A DNA stretch of 64,000 bases from an uncultured Candidatus Saccharibacteria bacterium (lineage in GTDB: Bacteria > Patescibacteriota > Minisyncoccia > Phycocordibacterales > UBA918), in the NCBI GenBank assembly GCA_964552045.1, contig CAZKFF010000001.1:120-64119 (forward strand), in the 5' to 3' direction. A model generated the notes under the pieces. The model had not been told where the DNA came from. It saw only the letters and a list, made by a program, of their open reading frames with translations, and made no database searches. The stretch's first letter is position 1. Every line of letters starts with the position of its first letter. The translations under genes were made by a program, and so were the position numbers. Positions 1 through 8,300 of this stretch are shown here, piece after piece.

Positions 1-30
1 AGTAGATCAATCCACAGCGACGACTACAAA

Positions 31-219
31 ATGATTATAAAGCGCCTCAAAGAGGCGCGCCTTGAAGTTGGTCTATCCCAGCAAGATGTAGCGGACAAAC
101 TTGATAAACCACAATCTTACGTTTCAAAAATTGAGTCTGGTGAGCGGCGTTTGGATGTTGCTGAAATGAAGGCGTTTGCAAAAATTTACAAAAAGCCGTT
201 GGATTACTTCGTGAATTAG
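31..219 (+). CDS. XRE-family helix-turn-helix transcriptional regulator; candidate controller (C) protein of the adjacent restriction-modification system
   Basis: 62 aa with the Cro/C1-type HTH signature (LSQQDVADKL...SYVSKIESG). Lies 4 nt upstream of a co-oriented ORF and is convergent with a DNA MTase, the classic C-R-M layout. Confidence 0.7.
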   Translation: MIIKRLKEARLEVGLSQQDVADKLDKPQSYVSKIESGERRLDVAEMKAFAKIYKKPLDYFVN

Positions 220-223
220 ACCC

Positions 224-922
224 ATGCCTAAGAATAAGAAAGACACAGTTAAAGAATCGATCTCTCTCATAGAGTCTATTGCAAAAAAGAGACAGAGGCT
301 TTCTGTTGAGGAAGCAAGGGTTTTGATTAGTGAAATTACTAAACTCACAAAAATTCTCTTGGTTTCCAGTGGATTCCCTATAAGAGATGTGACCAGACTT
401 ACCACAAAACTTAGGGACGCTGGACGTAGGTCACCCCCGTGGACACCTTATTCAGGTCGAGTTCCGGGCAGACCTCAAGACGGAGCGGATGGCAATCGGC
501 GCTTGAGATGGCTATTTCCAAAAACCCATAAGTTTTATGCTGACGAAATTACAGCGACATTGGTCGAGGTGAAATATTATCTACAAGTACTGTCTATGAC
601 CAATGCGCCCAAGCTCCCAAAAGGTGCATTCGAGGGGACATTTGATTGGCTTGTGAAGCACAAAATATCACCCGGTGCGTATTTAGACCCAATACAGTTG
701 GTTCCAATTGATCTAAAAGTGATTCTTAATGAGTTAAGAAATCTCCACTCAGGGCATTTGGTGCCGCTAGATCGTAGTGGCAAGCATGAGCCAGCGAATA
801 CTTTTCTTGTCTATGCACGAAGTAACCAGCTTCAAGGAAATTTGACGCTAAATGAACTACTCGACTTAATGAAGCGAATCCTAGACAAACACCACAGCGA
901 GCTGCATGACGAGATTATATAG
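224..922 (+). CDS. hypothetical protein; putative type II restriction endonuclease, inferred from context
   Basis: 232-aa intact ORF directly downstream of the C-like HTH gene. Its stop overlaps the stop of the convergent MTase gene. No nuclease motif recognised by eye, so the assignment rests only on the C-R-M arrangement. Confidence 0.35.
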   Translation: MPKNKKDTVKESISLIESIAKKRQRLSVEEARVLISEITKLTKILLVSSGFPIRDVTRLTTKLRDAGRRSPPWTPYSGRVPGRPQDGADGNRRLRWLFPKTHKFYADEITATLVEVKYYLQVLSMTNAPKLPKGAFEGTFDWLVKHKISPGAYLDPIQLVPIDLKVILNELRNLHSGHLVPLDRSGKHEPANTFLVYARSNQLQGNLTLNELLDLMKRILDKHHSELHDEII

Positions 923-2909
923 CTAACACTTCCTCTAGTTCATTTATTCCAGAAGTGAGGTCGTCTATCGCTTTTTGCCGCGCACTCTCCCCGTCCCTTA
1001 TCCTTTTTACAACCTTTTCGTAAACTTTTTTGTCTTTTGGAACTGGAATTTTTAGATTACCAATGTACTCAGGCGTAATCTCATCAATTACAGAACCATA
1101 AACACCACGCGCTATTGTCTCTTGTGCATATCTCGTTTTAAGGAAAGCAAATAAATACTCCGATGCCATTTTTTCTTGGTCGGGAATAACTCTAATTACA
1201 TGTTCTGAAAATGCATAACCGTCCCATGCTTGAGGTACCGTCGAAACAATTCCGACAGAACCGCTTCTGGTAATAAGGATCCAGCCTTTTTTCACTTTCA
1301 ACTCTTCTATCTTTTTATTTTCCAGACTCATCCACTTATCAGCCCGTAATAGGAGTTGAGTGACGTTAGTTCCACCTAAGAAAGGGACGGCTTCTTGACT
1401 TGGCTCAACGTAGTTTCTTGCAAAACGCCCGGGAAAAAAAATATTTTTAACAACATTATTTAGCTCAACGTACTCCCACTGTTTGTTGTGAGTTTTGCTA
1501 GTAGGTTTGACTGCTTTATGTGATTTGTAATAGCGGGCGTCGAATCTCAAAAGAGGGTCTTCACTAATTTGTTTAGGTGTGACCTTGAAGCTAATTTCTG
1601 AACTAAATTTCTTTTTCTTTTTAAAGTTCGAGTAGTCAGCCTCAACAACATGAAAATCACTTAAAATTTGATCTGTAACAGAACCGTCACGCTCTCTAAC
1701 GTATGTAGGATTTCCTCGTCTATCGTGTCCAATCCACTTAGGAGTGGACATGAAGATTTCGGGATCCGAATCTAAATCTATTTGCTCTAAAGGTTTTTTC
1801 CTTCTTTTCAAAACCAGTAGCGACGCTTTAGTCCCAGTGTGAGGCTGAAAAGTTTCTGGCGGCAGATCAACAACAGCTAAAATCTGCGCGTGTCTCAGAA
1901 TCCATTGGCGGACAAAAAGAGTTTGTGGACCAGAAACAATCTGATAAGGAACAACTATTGCCAACCTACCGGCATCAGGTTTAAGAAGTCTTATATTTCT
2001 CTCAATAAACAAAATATCAGGAGCACGCTGTACAACGGCAGACTCGTCACCAAATAAACCAGTCCTCGTATATTTTTTTGCTAAGTCAAATTGAGAAAGG
2101 AGTTCCGGATCTTTGATCGTAATCTTTGTACCAAAAGGAGGGTTGGTTGCGAGGCAGGAATAACTGCTTTCGTTAAGTCTACTTGAGGGATCAATTTTGA
2201 GAGAATCGCCATTAGCAACAAAATCTACATCTTGAGCACCTAGCTGAAACGACATTGTTGAATTTGCTATTTCCGAAAGCTCTTTATCGAGCTCCTGTCC
2301 AGCAATTGACTCTTTTGCAAGTTTTCTTGCTTTTTCTTCATCACCGTCAGCCAGTTTTTTTATGTGTTTGAGTGCTGCCATCAAAAACCCCCCTGTGCCT
2401 GCACAAATATCAGCAAAGTTGTCTCCTTTTAGAGGATTGAAATCAAGTAGCTTTATAGATAATTGGGTGACTCTTTGGTCGGTAAAAAATTGACCTCCAT
2501 TTGATTTCGTCCAGTGTGATCTAAAGATTTCCATTGAGTCGCCAAATACATCTCGTTCGGAAGTGAGGATATCAATGTCAAAGATTTTTTCGTAAACATG
2601 CGCAATGTTTAAGTCAGTGAGATTTATCTCATTTCCATCCTCGTAAAATCTGGACTGCTTATTAGCTGCCCCAAAATTCTTTCTAACAAAGCTTGCTACA
2701 TTCTTCACATCAATAGCCTGACCATTTAATCTATGTCCCCTTGAGGAGAGTGGGGGTTTGTTGATTTTATTCTTCTCGGCATAAGCCAGAGCCCTATATA
2801 TTTTTCCAACCTCCTTAGCAATAGCTGTAGGAACCTTCACCGGAGAATTGGCGTATAGGTAGTCATAAATGGAGTTCACTCGTGATTCAAGATGTATGAT
2901 CGTACTCAT
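915..2909 (-). CDS. N6-adenine DNA methyltransferase (gamma class) with fused C-terminal HsdS-like target recognition domain
   Basis: Motif I DICAGTGGFLMAA and motif IV TNPPFG are present. The C-terminal about 180 aa (GWILITRSGSVGIVSTV...NLKIPVPKD) match the type I specificity-subunit TRD pattern. Start moved to MSTIIHLE (Met-15 of the track ORF), 7 nt after a TATAAT box. Confidence 0.8.
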   Translation of the reverse strand: MSTIIHLESRVNSIYDYLYANSPVKVPTAIAKEVGKIYRALAYAEKNKINKPPLSSRGHRLNGQAIDVKNVASFVRKNFGAANKQSRFYEDGNEINLTDLNIAHVYEKIFDIDILTSERDVFGDSMEIFRSHWTKSNGGQFFTDQRVTQLSIKLLDFNPLKGDNFADICAGTGGFLMAALKHIKKLADGDEEKARKLAKESIAGQELDKELSEIANSTMSFQLGAQDVDFVANGDSLKIDPSSRLNESSYSCLATNPPFGTKITIKDPELLSQFDLAKKYTRTGLFGDESAVVQRAPDILFIERNIRLLKPDAGRLAIVVPYQIVSGPQTLFVRQWILRHAQILAVVDLPPETFQPHTGTKASLLVLKRRKKPLEQIDLDSDPEIFMSTPKWIGHDRRGNPTYVRERDGSVTDQILSDFHVVEADYSNFKKKKKFSSEISFKVTPKQISEDPLLRFDARYYKSHKAVKPTSKTHNKQWEYVELNNVVKNIFFPGRFARNYVEPSQEAVPFLGGTNVTQLLLRADKWMSLENKKIEELKVKKGWILITRSGSVGIVSTVPQAWDGYAFSEHVIRVIPDQEKMASEYLFAFLKTRYAQETIARGVYGSVIDEITPEYIGNLKIPVPKDKKVYEKVVKRIRDGESARQKAIDDLTSGINELEEVLAI

Positions 2910-2920
2910 ACATAAATTAT

Positions 2921-2958
2921 ATGCAAAATTTGCACAATGCAAAATTTGCATTGTGCAT
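2921..2958 (-). promoter_or_regulatory. tandem 14-bp direct repeats (ATGCAAAATTTGCA x2, each near-palindromic) overlapping the -35/spacer of the MTase promoter; candidate operator. TATAAT lies 7 nt upstream of the ATG, suggesting a leaderless mRNA
   Basis: Read directly from the sequence: atgcaaaatttgcaca / atgcaaaatttgcatt, 17 nt apart. On the minus strand it reads tgcaaattttgcaTATAATttatgtATG. Confidence 0.45.
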
Positions 2959-3005
2959 AACTTACTCAGGCAACTTCCTGTAACAAACGGGACATATCCG
3001 GGTCT

Positions 3006-3950
3006 TTACAGAACCTTACCTTTTGACCAGTACTCCTCAAACGCACTGCGAGCATCATCATAATTTTCTGACAAACTCACTTCTGATCGTTGTCCAGCAG
3101 ATATTGCATTCACGTTTGGTACGTTTCTCAGATACCCAACACCATCGAGAATCCATCGATCATGTGTGTCTCGTATCAATTTACTGTCTATAGTTGCCCA
3201 GGTTGTTTTGATACCTTTGTTTTCCATCTCCTGTTTGAACCGTTTGAAGTACCTTCGTACGTCGCTTCCCAAATTTACGTCTCCCATGTCCAAAGATAGA
3301 ATGCGTATTTCTTTTATTTTCTCTGCATCAGCAACACTCCATAACCATTCCAGCGCCTCTTTCTGGAAATGTTTATCGAGCCATGAAATGGATCCCTCAC
3401 ATTCTCCAAGTACTCGCTTTATCCAGAGGATGTTAGAGAATGGTCGCGATGGGTCAATAAAGATATTTTTTGGCGTATGAGGAGTATCGGGTGAGATAAG
3501 TACTTTCACAGCCCTAGTTTTCTTGTTGTAGGTGATAACACCTGCGTAATTCAAGAAGTCTAGGAAATGCGTCAATGGCTCGTTGGAATCATAGAACCAA
3601 AAGCCCGTAGCCTTTAGGACCGTAAGTACTTGATCAACAGTTACGTCCGATACTCCCCACAAATATTGCTGTAATGCAATCGTGGGAGGAAAGGATAGAA
3701 GCAAGTGCCTTAACATCTCGGTTTCCTCTCCATCACGGCGGATGTACAGCGACTCAAATATCGCTCGTCCGGCCTCAGAAAGCTCACCTGTAGCACCGAC
3801 ATCAAAAACTCCAAGCTCTTCCCAGAAAGTATAGTCGTCTCCCAGTTCATACCGATCTACTGAACCGTTCTCACCAGCCGCCTGTATATAAGGCAGCATT
3901 TTCTTCCAGTTATTCTGTGGCAGAAGTGTTGTCGTTTCCGTGTTTATCAT
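3006..3950 (-). CDS. hypothetical protein (island protein B), second gene of a two-gene operon of unknown function
   Basis: 314-aa ORF with AT-rich island composition. It overlaps the upstream ORF by 41 nt. An alternative start at Met-18 (3899) would leave a 10-nt gap. The C-terminal segment THDRWILDGVGYLRNVPNVN loosely resembles a PLD-type HxK..D..N signature but is not canonical. Confidence 0.55.
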   Translation of the reverse strand: MINTETTTLLPQNNWKKMLPYIQAAGENGSVDRYELGDDYTFWEELGVFDVGATGELSEAGRAIFESLYIRRDGEETEMLRHLLLSFPPTIALQQYLWGVSDVTVDQVLTVLKATGFWFYDSNEPLTHFLDFLNYAGVITYNKKTRAVKVLISPDTPHTPKNIFIDPSRPFSNILWIKRVLGECEGSISWLDKHFQKEALEWLWSVADAEKIKEIRILSLDMGDVNLGSDVRRYFKRFKQEMENKGIKTTWATIDSKLIRDTHDRWILDGVGYLRNVPNVNAISAGQRSEVSLSENYDDARSAFEEYWSKGKVL

Positions 3951-4707
3951 TTTCCTTTGGCTTTGCGTCTGTTACTGCTTTGTCCAGTGCTGCGATCTCA
4001 CTTCCAAACTTTCCGATGGCAAATAAGTACGCGATTTCTGTAGGGTAAGAAATTACAATACCGCTCGGTAACTCGACTTCCTGCATCCCCGTTTTAACTT
4101 GACGTTCTGACTTCTCTGCTCCAAACCGCTGTGATTGCGAGTGTTCACTATTGTCGGTTTCTTCGTCTGTCGTATCTGCCGTGTCTTTAGAGATGGCCTC
4201 ACTAACAATGCCGTTAGAGTACAAGCCTGCAAATTCAAGAGAATCCTTGAATGTTTGCACTACAGTATCGGCAACCTTGCGGCCTATTCCGAATTGTCTG
4301 ACAAGAATGTTGTTAAGAGTAGGAGGAACTGCACGTCCCGAATATTCACTGATGAGAGACTCAAACAACTTCGGATGCTTCGCCGCCTCTAATATTGCAG
4401 CATTTTTCTCCTCCTCTGTTGTATAATGAAGTATCTGCTCAGCAAGATCAGAGTTCTTATATGCGTTACCTTTGCGCTCTAAGAGTCCGTAATGTACCAG
4501 AGCTGCAACTTTAGGGGCTGAAGCACCGCTAAGCGTTGCGTAACCCATAGAAACAGCTGCAGAAGCCCGGTCAAACTGAGATTTAGGATAAGCAGCGATA
4601 AGTTTCTTACTGTACTCAACAGCTTCACCAAGAGGGATGGCGGGGTACGCTGTGCTCCGTTCTCTCTTTGTAGTCTTCTTCGCCTCTGTATTTTGATTGT
4701 CAGTCAT
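3910..4707 (-). CDS. hypothetical protein (island protein A), first gene of the two-gene operon
   Basis: 265 aa from MTDNQNTEAKK; the track ORF extends 7 codons further. Acidic C-terminal tail and no recognisable motif. Co-oriented with and overlapping the downstream ORF. Confidence 0.55.
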   Translation of the reverse strand: MTDNQNTEAKKTTKRERSTAYPAIPLGEAVEYSKKLIAAYPKSQFDRASAAVSMGYATLSGASAPKVAALVHYGLLERKGNAYKNSDLAEQILHYTTEEEKNAAILEAAKHPKLFESLISEYSGRAVPPTLNNILVRQFGIGRKVADTVVQTFKDSLEFAGLYSNGIVSEAISKDTADTTDEETDNSEHSQSQRFGAEKSERQVKTGMQEVELPSGIVISYPTEIAYLFAIGKFGSEIAALDKAVTDAKPKENDKHGNDNTSATE

Positions 4708-4914
4708 AATAATTTTATTTAATCCCATTCCAGTTGGGAGTTTTGTAATACTTAAAATATACTCTCTGTACTATATGCTTGTCAAGCGCAATCTTTACTT
4801 TGTGAAAAATGCCAGAATAACCCAGTAAAGTAGCCATTTTTATATCTATAAGAAACGAGTTACAAAGCGACATGCACCATATTTTTTGTAGTACAGAAAA
4901 GTCTTTGGGTACTT

Positions 4915-5775
4915 TGTAACATGGGGAGCAACCCCGCCCGCCAGGGCGGGGTTTGTGCGCGCACGGGTGGGAGCCGTGAACACGGCATGGGGCAAGCACA
5001 TAAGGCAGCGCCGTCGGGCTATTTCCGCTAGGAGCGTCCAGGGCTAAAGGACGAGCGCCGACGTTAATTTGCAATACAGAAATCTAGCAGCGGAAGCGAC
5101 ACCACAAACGCGCTATTGAAAACGAGGATGGGGGTTGTGCGAGGGCGGACTCCGAAGGCACGTTAAACGAAGCCGCAAAGCGCAAGTAAAGTACAAACGC
5201 AATGAAGCACTGAAGACGCTAATGAATCACTGCGAGGAGGAGCCCGACGCTGGGGGAAGGATTCCTTCCTTCCCCCAATCTAGTGTCCTGCCTTTTCCAC
5301 CGCCCCGCAGGGCGGAATGGAAAAGAAAAGCAGGACCCATAGGCACCTAGGCGCTCGTAGCCCTAGCGGAAATAGCCCGAGGCGGATGCCGAGGGTGCCT
5401 CCCTTTAGCCTCTGGACTACCATAGAAATCTAGGAAATGGCACGAGGCACCGAATTGGAAGCGCCTTCCTTCTTCCACGTTTAGTGGAAGAACGCCCGGA
5501 AGAAAAAATCCTTTTCCATATCCAAAAAAATATCCCCCGCCAAAAAAGAAAAAGGAATACTGCAAAGGATTTTTCTGGAGGGCGTACCGCCGGAACGGAG
5601 TGGAGGCGGAAGGAGGCGCGTATCGAGTTACCACGCAAGCGGAGCGTACGATTCGGTCTCAAGCCACCACGCGCTCCGCGCGGGCGGATCACTTCTCGCT
5701 ACGCTCGAAAAAAGTTCGGATTTCATCATATAGACGGAGCTGAGGAATTTAGGAACCCCGCGCACGCGGGGTTTT
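4915..5775. ncRNA. candidate structured non-coding RNA region of unassigned class (GC-rich, ORF-poor, multiple stable hairpins)
   Basis: No credible ORF, only overlapping Arg-rich junk ORFs on both strands. Hairpins at 4926-4956 (10 bp), 5273-5297 (10 bp), 5306-5322 and 5468-5486. An intrinsic terminator on the + strand at about 5748-5775 closes the region. Weak, inconclusive similarity to the RNase P P4 region (AGAACGCCCGGAAGA). Confidence 0.25.
5748..5775 (+). terminator. rho-independent terminator (aaccccgcgcacgcggggttttt)
   Basis: 8-bp GC-rich stem with a 4-nt loop, followed by a run of 5 T. Confidence 0.6.
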
Positions 5776-7304: not shown

Positions 7305-8300
7305 GTGATCATTTTTTATAAACTTGGCAGAAGATTGTTCGCAGGCTATGTGCTGCTTGCACTTTTTGTTGCAGTCACCGGCGGCATTGGCGTCTATGTA
7401 TCGCAACAGATCAGCGACTCCTTCTTGACTACCGCCAACAATGCGACCCCTGCTATCCGGGCGTTGTTCGAAATAAAGAGCACACTCAATGACATCGACA
7501 CGCTGACCGCCGATTTCGAACTGGCGAAGAATCCGGCGGTATCCGCTGAGCCGTCGCAGGAAATCAATGTACTGCGAAGCGGATTGATCGGACAGATCGA
7601 GCGCATGGGCGACAAGATCACCCAGTATCGTGAGACGAGTACGAATGCAAACGAAGCCGAGATCGTGCAAAAGATTGTCGATCAGAATGACCGCATCATT
7701 TCCAAAGCGCTTGGATTCATTGAACTTACGGAGAACACCGACGGACAAACACTCACACAACAACGGGATGCGCTTCGAAACGAAGCAGCGACCATGCATA
7801 AGATCATCGATGCAGTGATAACCCGCGAGATACAAAGCATCCAGATCGATACTGAAAATTCAAAGAAACTTGCCGATTCGCTTATTGTTATTATCACAGC
7901 CATTGCGCTGTGCGCTTTTGTCATTGCACTCCTGGTCGGGTTTTTTCTCTCAAACTATATATCCCGGTCAACGCAGATACTGCTCGATGCGATCGGCAAA
8001 GTGAAAGACGGGGTTCTCTCTGTTGATATCCCCCTGCATACCAAAGACGAAATGGGCCTGATCGGAGAAAGTTTCAGAGACCTTGCACACAAACTGCAGA
8101 TCGCGCAGCAGAAAATAGAACGGAATGCAGATGAGCTGGCCGCGACAAATCAGGCGCTCTATGACAAGAATGCGGAGCTGGAAAAATTCAACAAAATGAT
8201 GATCGGGCGGGAGATAAAAATGGTCGAACTGAAAGAAGAGATCAGGCAGCTGAGGTCAGACGGTTCTTCTTCGCAACCTGATGCTTCGCACCAGAGTTAA
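7305..8300 (+). CDS. membrane protein with a periplasmic sensor-like region and a HAMP domain, no recognisable output domain
   Basis: Two TM segments flank an about 170-aa loop. HAMP-like segment STQILLDAIGKVKDGVLSVDIPLHTKDEMGLIGESFRDLAHKL, then a coiled coil. Confidence 0.6.
   Translation: MIIFYKLGRRLFAGYVLLALFVAVTGGIGVYVSQQISDSFLTTANNATPAIRALFEIKSTLNDIDTLTADFELAKNPAVSAEPSQEINVLRSGLIGQIERMGDKITQYRETSTNANEAEIVQKIVDQNDRIISKALGFIELTENTDGQTLTQQRDALRNEAATMHKIIDAVITREIQSIQIDTENSKKLADSLIVIITAIALCAFVIALLVGFFLSNYISRSTQILLDAIGKVKDGVLSVDIPLHTKDEMGLIGESFRDLAHKLQIAQQKIERNADELAATNQALYDKNAELEKFNKMMIGREIKMVELKEEIRQLRSDGSSSQPDASHQS

Follow-up and report, generated by a model that had tools for sequence, protein, structure and literature searches.

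The promoter of the methylase gene (M) of a mobile C-R-M cassette was found to carry two GCA-N5-TGC boxes that recur upstream of M across a large restriction-modification (R-M) family. The cassette, which also encodes a restriction endonuclease (R) and a C protein (C), lies at one end of the window, that is, the whole 64-kb stretch of DNA analyzed here. The comparative sequence evidence presented below supports the view that selection maintains the repeats as a cis-regulatory element in front of M. The boxes are most likely the recognition sequence of the cassette itself, and M therefore probably throttles its own gene.

Paired boxes in the methylase promoter

The 14-mer ATGCAAAATTTGCA has two exact matches in the whole window, both on the plus strand in front of M (Table 1). 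As originally predicted, the two copies are in direct orientation and each is nearly palindromic; their spacing, given in that prediction as 17 nt, is in fact 16 nt from start to start, with 2 nt between the copies. Taken as 16-mers, the copies are 88% identical. Copy 2 together with the next base makes up the perfect 15-mer ATGCAAA-A-TTTGCAT, and a perfect 13+1+13 palindrome, overlooked in the original prediction, is centered on this promoter-distal copy. Comparison of the promoters of M homologues revealed that the conserved core of the repeats is GCA-N5-TGC. The promoter-distal box at the center of the 27-bp palindrome is invariant in the closest relatives, and the promoter-proximal box is exact in the window and in the L165 and L001 loci but has one mismatch (GTA) in the L002 group.

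Promoters in the window and in the family are predictions. On the M strand, a consensus scan identified a sigma-70-like promoter composed of TTTGCA and TATAAT with a 16-nt spacer, which matches the consensus at 10 of 12 positions. The claim that the repeat pair overlaps the -35 element and spacer of the M promoter was confirmed for this predicted promoter.

Table 1. Positions of the cassette genes, boxes, and predicted promoter elements in the window
Feature	Position	Strand	Remarks
Mobile C-R-M cassette, extent in the window	1..2979		includes the boxes and ~30 nt upstream of the boxes
C protein gene, HTH_3	1..219	+	start codon just left of the window; full protein 73 aa
R, 232 aa	224..922	+	convergent with M, tail-to-tail overlap of 8 nt
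M, 664 aa	915..2909	-	type I-like N6-adenine MTase with one fused TRD and a long C-terminal helix
M start codon	2907..2909	-	predicted transcription start at the A at 2909, which would be leaderless
Predicted -10, TATAAT	2916..2921	-	consensus scan; TATAAT/TATACT in relatives
Predicted -35, TTTGCA	2938..2943	-	consensus scan only
14-mer copy 1, ATGCAAAATTTGCA	2921..2934	+	exact match
14-mer copy 2, ATGCAAAATTTGCA	2937..2950	+	exact match
Promoter-proximal GCA-N5-TGC box	2923..2933		fills the -35/-10 spacer, ends 1 nt before TATAAT
Promoter-distal GCA-N5-TGC box	2939..2949		GCAAAATTTGC on the plus strand, GCAAATTTTGC on the M strand; over the predicted -35
Palindrome TGCACAATGCAAA-A-TTTGCATTGTGCA (13+1+13)	2931..2957		as RNA, a 12-bp hairpin

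Conservation of the boxes across the family

At least one GCA-N5-TGC box was present within 150 nt of the M start in 80 of the 89 distinct promoter regions, which come from many phyla. Two copies were found in 48 of these regions, and in 39 of the 48 they keep the 16-bp register. The density of the motif reached 9.7 sites per kb in the 150 nt upstream of M, compared to 0.22 per kb in the rest of the loci (44-fold), and only two sites were observed in 14.3 kb of sequence upstream of R or C-R units. An unbiased tally of all 3-gap-3 patterns placed GCA-5-TGC first (80/89 loci), and the runners-up, found in 63 and 59 loci, were shifted versions of the same motif. The carriers belong to many bacterial phyla and include one archaeal MAG and one Acinetobacter plasmid, pANC7919.3 of the cultured Acinetobacter sp. 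ANC 7919. At the protein identity of ~45% found in the family, unselected non-coding DNA would be randomized, and the retention of the boxes counts in favor of selection.

The GCA and TGC half-sites are conserved while the letters of the N5 spacer and the flanks vary among loci, a pattern typical of a bipartite site that is recognized through two 3-bp half-sites. Within one locus, the N5 spacers of the paired boxes are more alike than those of boxes from different loci, and direct-repeat and inverted versions of the boxes are equally common family-wide. With respect to the predicted -10 element, the placement of the boxes ranges from upstream of the -35 to downstream of the -10; in ~22 loci they are located wholly upstream of the predicted -35. 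The boxes are absent in the cyanobacterial branch of the family.

The cassette enzymes and the putative recognition sequence

Pfam identified only the N6_Mtase and Methylase_S domains in M, and the structural model of the protein is composed of an HsdM-like helical N-terminus, a Rossmann core, the TRD, and a terminal helix. The fold matches of this model are type I M subunits, PacII, CamA, and BsaXI. Neither the Pfam search nor the model revealed an HTH domain in M, so recognition of the boxes by this protein would have to rely on its catalytic/specificity apparatus. The TRD and the catalytic part of M are conserved to the same degree across the family, and a single specificity is therefore expected for the family. 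TRD identity is uniform throughout the family (41-66%), which makes a comparison of TRD divergence between loci with and without boxes uninformative. M proteins of the cyanobacterial branch have an N-terminal extension that gave only a sub-threshold match to HSDR_N_2. The cassette proteins obtained only generic names from NCBIfam and PADLOC, exact protein look-ups with the window's C and M and with the 100%-identical P0001 returned no match, and Rfam and tRNA scans of the window also gave no matches.

M combines an HsdM-like N6-adenine methylase with a half-HsdS (a single TRD) and is accompanied by a separate nuclease, which is the make-up of an AhdI-like type II system. Single-TRD HsdM-like enzymes work as symmetric dimers and read 3-N5-3 sequences. 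The AhdI methylase, for its part, reads GACN5GTC (PMC2275141). The R gene adjoins M in nearly all loci, and the structural model of R (pLDDT 86) matched DraIII (PDB 4L0K) best, although the match is remote (TM 0.36-0.40, identity 17-20%). DraIII belongs to the HNH-type type IIP enzymes, and its cleavage site is the gapped palindrome CACNNNGTG (PMC3996161). Like this sequence, the putative target of the cassette is a gapped palindrome with 3-bp half-sites, but its gap is N5 rather than N3. The single-TRD M and the DraIII-like model of R both fit a 3-N5-3 gapped palindrome.

The core of the boxes is identical to the BstAPI/ApaBI specificity GCANNNNNTGC, a comparison made at the level of the recognition sequence. 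If GCA-N5-TGC is the recognition sequence, the family would be predicted to methylate GCANNNNNTGC and to protect DNA from BstAPI. One point that counts against this assignment is that the target adenines of one box would be 6 bp apart. To our knowledge, this is closer than in any type I or IIB sites. In addition, GCANNNNNTGC shows no avoidance, with 49 sites in the window versus 28 expected, and none in the locus flanks either; this is weak or uninformative as counter-evidence, because the cassette is compositionally foreign (GC content of ~40% compared to ~50% in host DNA). Searches of the literature and supplements found no methylome or REBASE-type record on the specificity of the family. 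Publications on GCANNNNNTGC and on BstAPI or ApaBI methylases and methylomes yielded only cloning uses and MwoI engineering, and the supplements of the prokaryotic epigenome survey contained neither a GCANNNNNTGC-type motif nor the cultured carriers that were sought.

Candidate readers of the boxes and proposed control of methylase expression

The original prediction favored a dimeric HTH regulator as the reader of the repeats, for example the adjacent C protein, which it described as a 62-aa protein. The corresponding ORF begins at an internal ATG, as the window opens 3 nt past the true start codon of the C gene. The DNA to the left of the window is covered by the L168 locus, which was found via an exact look-up of R and encodes an identical R. 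A search for the M-promoter repeat upstream of the HTH gene, suggested by the same prediction, returned a different palindrome pair, ATCCCATTTTGGGAT and ATACCATATTAGGAT (ATCCCA-N3-TGGGAT). GCA-N5-TGC is absent from this region in L168, as well as in the relatives L001, L002, L006, L085, and L088. That the boxes serve as a C-protein operator at which C occludes the M promoter as it accumulates, as in Esp1396I, appears improbable, even though the cassette has a C gene and the convergent layout of Esp1396I. The M and C boxes are also alike in architecture, both consisting of two 15-bp palindromes with a 16-bp period and 9-10 of 15 positions in common, and several relatives have the flank CACAATG both at the M boxes and at C box 2. 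However, the positions at which the M boxes (GCA/TGC) differ from the C boxes (CCC/GGG) are exactly the invariant letters of the M boxes, and no C-box-like sequence within 3 mismatches was found in the M promoter. Furthermore, 28 of 30 loci without a C gene carry the boxes, as do all 21 loci that have one, where the C proteins represent at least four different, unrelated subtypes. The boxes are intact in the near-identical cassette of L165, whose C gene is cut to a stump, and L107, which has no C gene, has retained the extended palindrome. These data show that C and the boxes of the M promoter are separable modules, with the C gene gained and lost while the boxes remain.

It is also unlikely that the boxes are a dedicated two-site operator, bound by M or by a different cassette protein such as R, while the true target is another sequence. 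The 16-bp register, kept in most two-box loci despite variable placement, resembles cooperative two-dimer binding, and both the likeness of the N5 spacers within a locus and the lack of motif avoidance in the genome fit such an operator. In contrast, M is without an extra DNA-binding domain, the known methylase repressors that act at non-target operators have an N-terminal HTH, and a 3-N5-3 sequence is already the expected target of a single-TRD dimer working with a DraIII-like nuclease. We regard as very unlikely the possibility that the palindrome works as a hairpin, either an intrinsic terminator or an insulator, that prevents transcription of the same-strand genes upstream of M (3006..4728) from running on into the M promoter. 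A terminator scan did flag 2957..2931 (12 pairs, 5 of them G-C, and the tail AATTTTGCAT with 5 T in an 8-base window), the RNA folds better than its shuffled versions (z = -3.4), and the pair of boxes makes up a long inverted repeat in L095, L101, L102, and L104. However, homology to L165 ends at 2979, which puts the upstream genes outside the cassette, whereas the palindrome travels with M; it is also kept in relatives with other or divergent neighbors. Across the family, GCA/TGC is conserved whereas stem pairing is not, inverted boxes are no more common than direct ones, and most relatives are without T-tracts. Hardly credible, finally, is the notion that the repeats are mere promoter elements (a duplicated -35-like TTGCA) or a chance duplication with no trans-acting reader. 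TTTGCA and TTGCAT are like TTGACA, and TTG or TTGACA frequently comes directly after a box, but the conservation of the 3' half extends equally to the 5' GCA half and to the exact N5 gap, the boxes range over the whole promoter from upstream of the -35 to downstream of the -10, and their enrichment is far beyond chance.

M itself, which the original prediction had named as an alternative reader, is the likeliest candidate to bind the boxes. We consider it reasonably probable that cognate sites in the M promoter exert negative feedback on M, a control of the self-site type in which repression is the inferred outcome. When the cassette enters a new cell that has no M yet, the promoter would be free and unmethylated, and M would be made at the full rate. 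As M accumulates, it would bind and N6-methylate the four adenines of the two boxes, whose positions relative to the ATG, also the predicted transcription start, are about -38 and -22 (coding strand) and about -32 and -16 (template strand). Occupancy, methylation, or both would then reduce the use of the M promoter by RNA polymerase and close the feedback loop, while the C protein would work separately through its own palindrome pair upstream of the C-R unit. In the ~22 loci with boxes upstream of the -35, methylation alone is expected to have a weak effect, suggesting that the mechanism may vary among loci or use occupancy. The fixed 16-bp register is left unexplained by this scheme, as a type I-like dimer is bulky and would not be expected to occupy the two boxes simultaneously. 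We hold only tentatively the broader proposal that the enzyme's own target has been made into a two-site operator, whose register recurs across phyla at varying places in the promoter, and that self-site control is general in a large and widespread R-M family. If true, two M dimers, or an M-R assembly, would bind the opposite faces of the DNA in a cooperative manner, the OL/OR logic of C proteins has been copied without a C protein, and the specificities of uncharacterized R-M systems could be read from conserved motifs in M promoters.

The control design itself is already known from AhdI, CfrBI, and LlaDII. The primary studies behind promoter-methylation control are reportedly those of Beletskaya in 2000 (CfrBI) and of Christensen and Josephsen in 2004 (LlaDII). 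A 2025 review described the control of R-M genes by promoter methylation as logical but 'apparently rarely used' and named three cases. Probable self-sites are present in the M promoter of ~90% of the family studied here, with or without C, and such feedback would be common if they are confirmed.

In AhdI, methylation of the site in the MS promoter decreases transcription ~2-fold in vitro and ~4-fold in vivo, independently of C.AhdI (Bogdanova et al., 2008; PMC2275141). AhdI and the cassette described here share convergent C-R and methylase units, a type I-like adenine methylase (that of AhdI reading a 3-N5-3 gapped palindrome), and two separate palindromic C boxes. The cognate site inside the AhdI methylase promoter mediates the C-independent negative autoregulation that we infer for M. 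The two systems differ in that AhdI has separate M and S subunits, whereas here one TRD is fused to M, and in that AhdI has one site, GAC-N5-GTC, over the -10, whereas here two GCA-N5-TGC sites in the 16-bp register cover the -35 and the spacer. A leaderless mRNA is a further point of resemblance, that of C in AhdI and, by prediction, that of M here. In comparison with AhdI, the nuclease model here is HNH/DraIII-like. For CfrBI and LlaDII, the methylation state of the promoter cognate site(s) is reported to set M expression (PMC3874152, PMC12707154). The CfrBI site lies over the -35 of its M promoter, as the promoter-distal box does over the predicted -35 here, but CfrBI has divergent genes with one common site and no C protein, in contrast to the convergent layout with a C gene, and its switch also raises R expression, whereas the C-R unit here is without such a site. 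Esp1396I likewise has convergent C-R and M units, and its M promoter also contains a palindromic element; that element is a strong C site bound by C, which limits M synthesis, whereas the element described here differs from the C boxes and is C-independent. The SsoII, Ecl18kI, EcoRII, and MspI methylases repress their own genes at the promoter, the effect proposed for M, but they are C5 methylases that use a dedicated N-terminal HTH and a non-target operator.

The ATG at 2909 is the correct start of M, since homologues align from residue 1, and no Shine-Dalgarno-like run was found before it. The TATAAT hexamer is indeed close to this codon, at an exact gap of 6 nt (TATAAT-TTATGT-ATG), the A of the ATG being the 7th base past the hexamer. 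The proposed leaderless M mRNA is therefore consistent with the geometry of the predicted start. In the window, 23 of 72 long ORFs have a TAnnnT hexamer whose end is 5-9 nt upstream of the ATG, compared to 3.7 at control offsets, and only 7 of the 72 have a Shine-Dalgarno-like motif. Judged from sequence, M probably has a leaderless mRNA, like many other genes of the source genome; the arrangement is real but ordinary rather than peculiar to M, being the apparent norm in that genome and recurring in 20 of 83 family promoters.

Repeats in the promoter of the methylase gene

The 14-mer ATGCAAAATTTGCA was found at exactly two places in the 64-kb window, both of them upstream of the methylase gene (M) of a restriction-modification cassette that also encodes a putative restriction endonuclease (R) and a helix-turn-helix (HTH) controller protein (C). 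The plus strand reads ATTAT ATGCAAAATTTGCA CA ATGCAAAATTTGCA TTGTGCATAAC, and the second copy is the centre of a perfect palindrome. The two copies are direct and exact, as the original prediction had described them, with a start-to-start spacing of 16 nt rather than 17 nt. Each contains a GCA-N5-TGC box.

Features of the M promoter and its surroundings in the window
Feature	Coordinates	Strand	Remarks
R	224-922	+	232 aa
M	915-2909	minus	664 aa; N6_Mtase domain and one Methylase_S domain
14-mer copies ATGCAAAATTTGCA	2921-2934, 2937-2950	+	exact match search
Proximal box	2923-2933		GCA-N5-TGC
Distal box	2939-2949		GCA-N5-TGC
Perfect palindrome	2931-2957		13+1+13, centred on second copy
Gene upstream of M	3006-3950	minus	314 aa; outside the cassette common with L165
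Gene upstream of M	3910-4728	minus	272 aa; outside the cassette common with L165

On the minus strand, from which M is transcribed, the order is GTTATGCACAAT-GCAAATTTTGC-ATTGT-GCAAATTTTGC-A-TATAAT-TTATGT-ATG. A consensus scan predicted the promoter TTTGCA, 16-nt spacer, TATAAT, with 10 of 12 positions matching, which places the upstream box across the -35 hexamer. The downstream box occupies the spacer up to 1 nt short of the predicted -10, so that the earlier placement of the repeats over the -35 and spacer was borne out. In the window, methylation would be expected on coding-strand adenines near -38 and -22 and on template-strand adenines at -32 and -16, positions inside the -35 hexamer and beside the -10.

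The promoter geometry also fits the leaderless M mRNA that had been proposed: the A of the start codon (2909) is the seventh base past the predicted -10, and inspection of the upstream sequence revealed no Shine-Dalgarno sequence before the ATG. Of 83 promoters scored among M homologues, 20 have a predicted -10 whose end is 6-8 nt from the start codon, and 23 of 89 regions have TAnnnT at this offset, compared with a mean of 10 at control offsets. The window has 72 ORFs of at least 150 aa; in 23 of them a TAnnnT hexamer lies with its end 5-9 nt upstream of the first ATG (3.7 at control offsets), and only 7 of the 72 have a Shine-Dalgarno-like motif. Judging from these sequence counts, leaderless mRNAs appear to predominate in the genome. 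Because such geometry is common in both the window and the family, a leaderless M mRNA is probably real but not special to M.

Conservation of the boxes across M homologues

We gathered M homologues (40-67% identity) from the contigs of genomes and metagenomes and scored 89 distinct M-upstream regions for exact copies of GCA-N5-TGC in the 150 nt before the start codon. At least one copy was present in 80 of the 89 regions and two in 48; among the latter, the start-to-start distance was 16 bp in 39 and 15 or 17 bp in 8. The density was 9.7 per kb upstream of M versus 0.22 per kb elsewhere in the same loci, the latter being close to chance expectation. When every trinucleotide-gap-trinucleotide pattern was counted without prior assumption, GCA-5-TGC ranked top (80 of 89 loci), and the next patterns (63 and 59 loci) were its register-shifted echoes. 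The central five bases and the flanks are variable, with a preference only for A/T and for AT...AT flanks. Among the closest relatives, no variation is seen in the distal 15-mer ATGCAAAWTTTGCAT or in the TGC of the proximal box. This family-wide enrichment upholds the view of the repeats as a regulatory site of the M promoter.

By name, the carriers include Parcubacteria, Saccharibacteria, Planctomycetota, Bacteroidota, Chloroflexota, Myxococcota, Cyanobacteria, Spirochaetia, Acidobacteriota, a Methanosarcinales MAG, and others. The 8.7-kb plasmid pANC7919.3 of the cultured Acinetobacter sp. ANC 7919 (L169, NZ_CP156792.1) encodes M and R, and three of its four GCA-N5-TGC sites lie at most 65 nt upstream of M (L169 5593-5646). 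A cyanobacterial branch of the family (loci L042-L048, L082, and L162-L164; M 34-38% and R ~50% identical) has no GCA-N5-TGC upstream of M and may use a different control solution. Its M proteins carry an N-terminal extension of 150-180 aa with only a weak HSDR_N_2 match (E 0.04).

Candidate readers of the boxes

In the PDB, M is related by sequence to type I M subunits and BsaXI. Its structural model (pLDDT 82) combines a helical N-terminus resembling that of HsdM with a Rossmann core, one target recognition domain (TRD), and a 37-residue terminal helix, and by fold it matches type I methylases, PacII, CamA, and BsaXI; neither the domain search nor the model and its fold matches revealed an HTH in M. 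Methylases that combine one TRD with a dimerizing helix read symmetric bipartite sites made up of two short half-sites; the model case is AhdI, which is M2S2 and reads GAC-N5-GTC. The conserved core of the boxes, identical to the BstAPI site (GCANNNNNTGC), fits this pattern. AlfI (GCA-N6-TGC) and NgoAV (GCA-N8-TGC) are known examples of GCA-reading TRDs with methylation at the A. Across the M family the TRD is as conserved as the catalytic part, so one specificity is expected throughout. R had no match in domain and family searches including Pfam, NCBIfam, and PADLOC, and it is the tail-to-tail neighbour of M in almost every homologous locus. The best structural match of its model (pLDDT 86) is PDB 4L0K, the HNH enzyme DraIII, which cuts the gapped palindrome CACNNNGTG with 3-bp half-sites (PMC3996161).

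Taken at the level of sequence and models, the boxes are most likely the system's own recognition sites in the M promoter, and the methylase itself, one of two readers originally suggested, is the likely one; both specificity and regulation by the boxes are what we infer. Such sites would exert negative feedback on M, as in systems with like placement. The AhdI site, which covers the -10, reduces transcription ~2-fold in vitro and ~4-fold in vivo, independently of C (PMC2275141); published summaries describe a CfrBI site overlapping the -35 and name LlaDII as a third promoter-site case (PMC3874152, PMC12707154). The distal box of the window likewise overlaps the -35 as in CfrBI, whereas AhdI has its one site over the -10 and the window has two boxes over the -35 and spacer. 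The element is probably a further case of the same kind of control, and its new aspects are the two-box 16-bp architecture and the wide family conservation.

The other suggested reader, the adjacent C protein, is not supported. The window begins 3 nt past the C start codon and cuts the gene, with homologues aligning from position 1; in L168, a contig encoding an identical R, an ATG stands directly left of that position and C has 73 aa (window 1-219, L168 1-313), so the "62-aa HTH protein" (ORF 31-219) starts at an internal ATG. The originally suggested search for the repeat upstream of the HTH gene found it absent in L168. There, the C promoter (L168 46-91) carries ATCCCATTTTGGGAT-T-ATACCATATTAGGAT, then TATCCTAAAAATAC before the ATG, with a possible -10, TATCCT, ending 8 nt before it. 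The 15-bp palindromes ATCCCATTTTGGGAT and ATACCATATTAGGAT, with a 16-bp period, are a typical two-palindrome C box. Relatives have a like element upstream of C; none of these elements contains GCA-N5-TGC, only two copies occur in 14.3 kb upstream of all R or C-R units, and the M promoter of the window has no C-box-like sequence within 3 mismatches. An HMM built from HTH proteins beside R detected C genes, of several sequence subtypes, in 21 loci, all with boxes, and none in 30 loci with at least 800 nt readable upstream of R, 28 of which retain boxes. In L165, a 92%-identical cassette copy, C is cut down to its last ~30 codons (4907-5000), with R, M, and both boxes intact. C boxes and M boxes do have the 16-bp period in common and agree at 9-10 of 15 positions, a marginal likeness (p estimated at about 0.05) that may allow weak cross-binding by C. 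The invariant letters of the M boxes are those that differ from the C boxes. A role of the palindrome at 2931-2957 as an intrinsic terminator or insulator hairpin is very improbable: a terminator scan flags it and its RNA folds well (z = -3.4), but it belongs to the cassette, is kept where neighbours differ, and across the family the GCA/TGC triplets are what is conserved, not stem pairing or a T tract. The palindrome may insulate incidentally, but that is not its selected function.

Several observations sit less easily with plain self-sites. With 49 GCANNNNNTGC sites in the window versus 28 expected from shuffles, the putative target shows an excess instead of avoidance. Box placement with respect to the predicted promoter varies: entirely upstream of the -35 in ~22 loci, over the -35/spacer in ~12, the window included, over the -10 in ~7, and downstream of the -10 in up to 17, some of the latter promoter calls being doubtful. 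The inter-box register nonetheless stays at 16 bp. This constraint must be set by the reader of the boxes, and a dimer as bulky as a type I-like one should not be able to occupy both simultaneously. N5 spacers of the same locus, direct or reverse-complement, are alike (at least 4 of 5 identical) in 51% of loci versus 23% between loci; the central base of both boxes is T/T in the window (2923-2949) and A/A in L165 (7698-7724). Such matching suggests concerted change or selection for matched boxes. Together, these observations would accommodate a cooperative two-site operator, a novel alternative to the plain self-site that we regard as rather unlikely. Many of the GCANNNNNTGC sites in the window are GCAGC...CTGC-like.

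Boundaries and composition of the cassette

L165 has another genomic context, and its homology stops at window position 2979; the boxes therefore travel with the cassette, and the two upstream genes (3006-4728), which had no match in Pfam, PADLOC, or NCBIfam, do not. The cassette has a GC content of ~40% versus ~50% in the rest of the window. Over the first 4.7 kb the content is 39-45% (~40% over R and M), and from ~4.7 to 12 kb it is ~47-53%, which suggests that the first 4.7 kb is a compositionally foreign island. The 3' ends of M and R overlap by 8 nt (915-922), so convergent transcription must collide. The L165 cassette is flanked by a 25-bp direct repeat, CGCACTGCGCTCATCCACTTAGAGA (4863-4888 and 7761-7786), which is the 3' end of a neighbouring NTPase gene, and looks like an insertion with a long target duplication.
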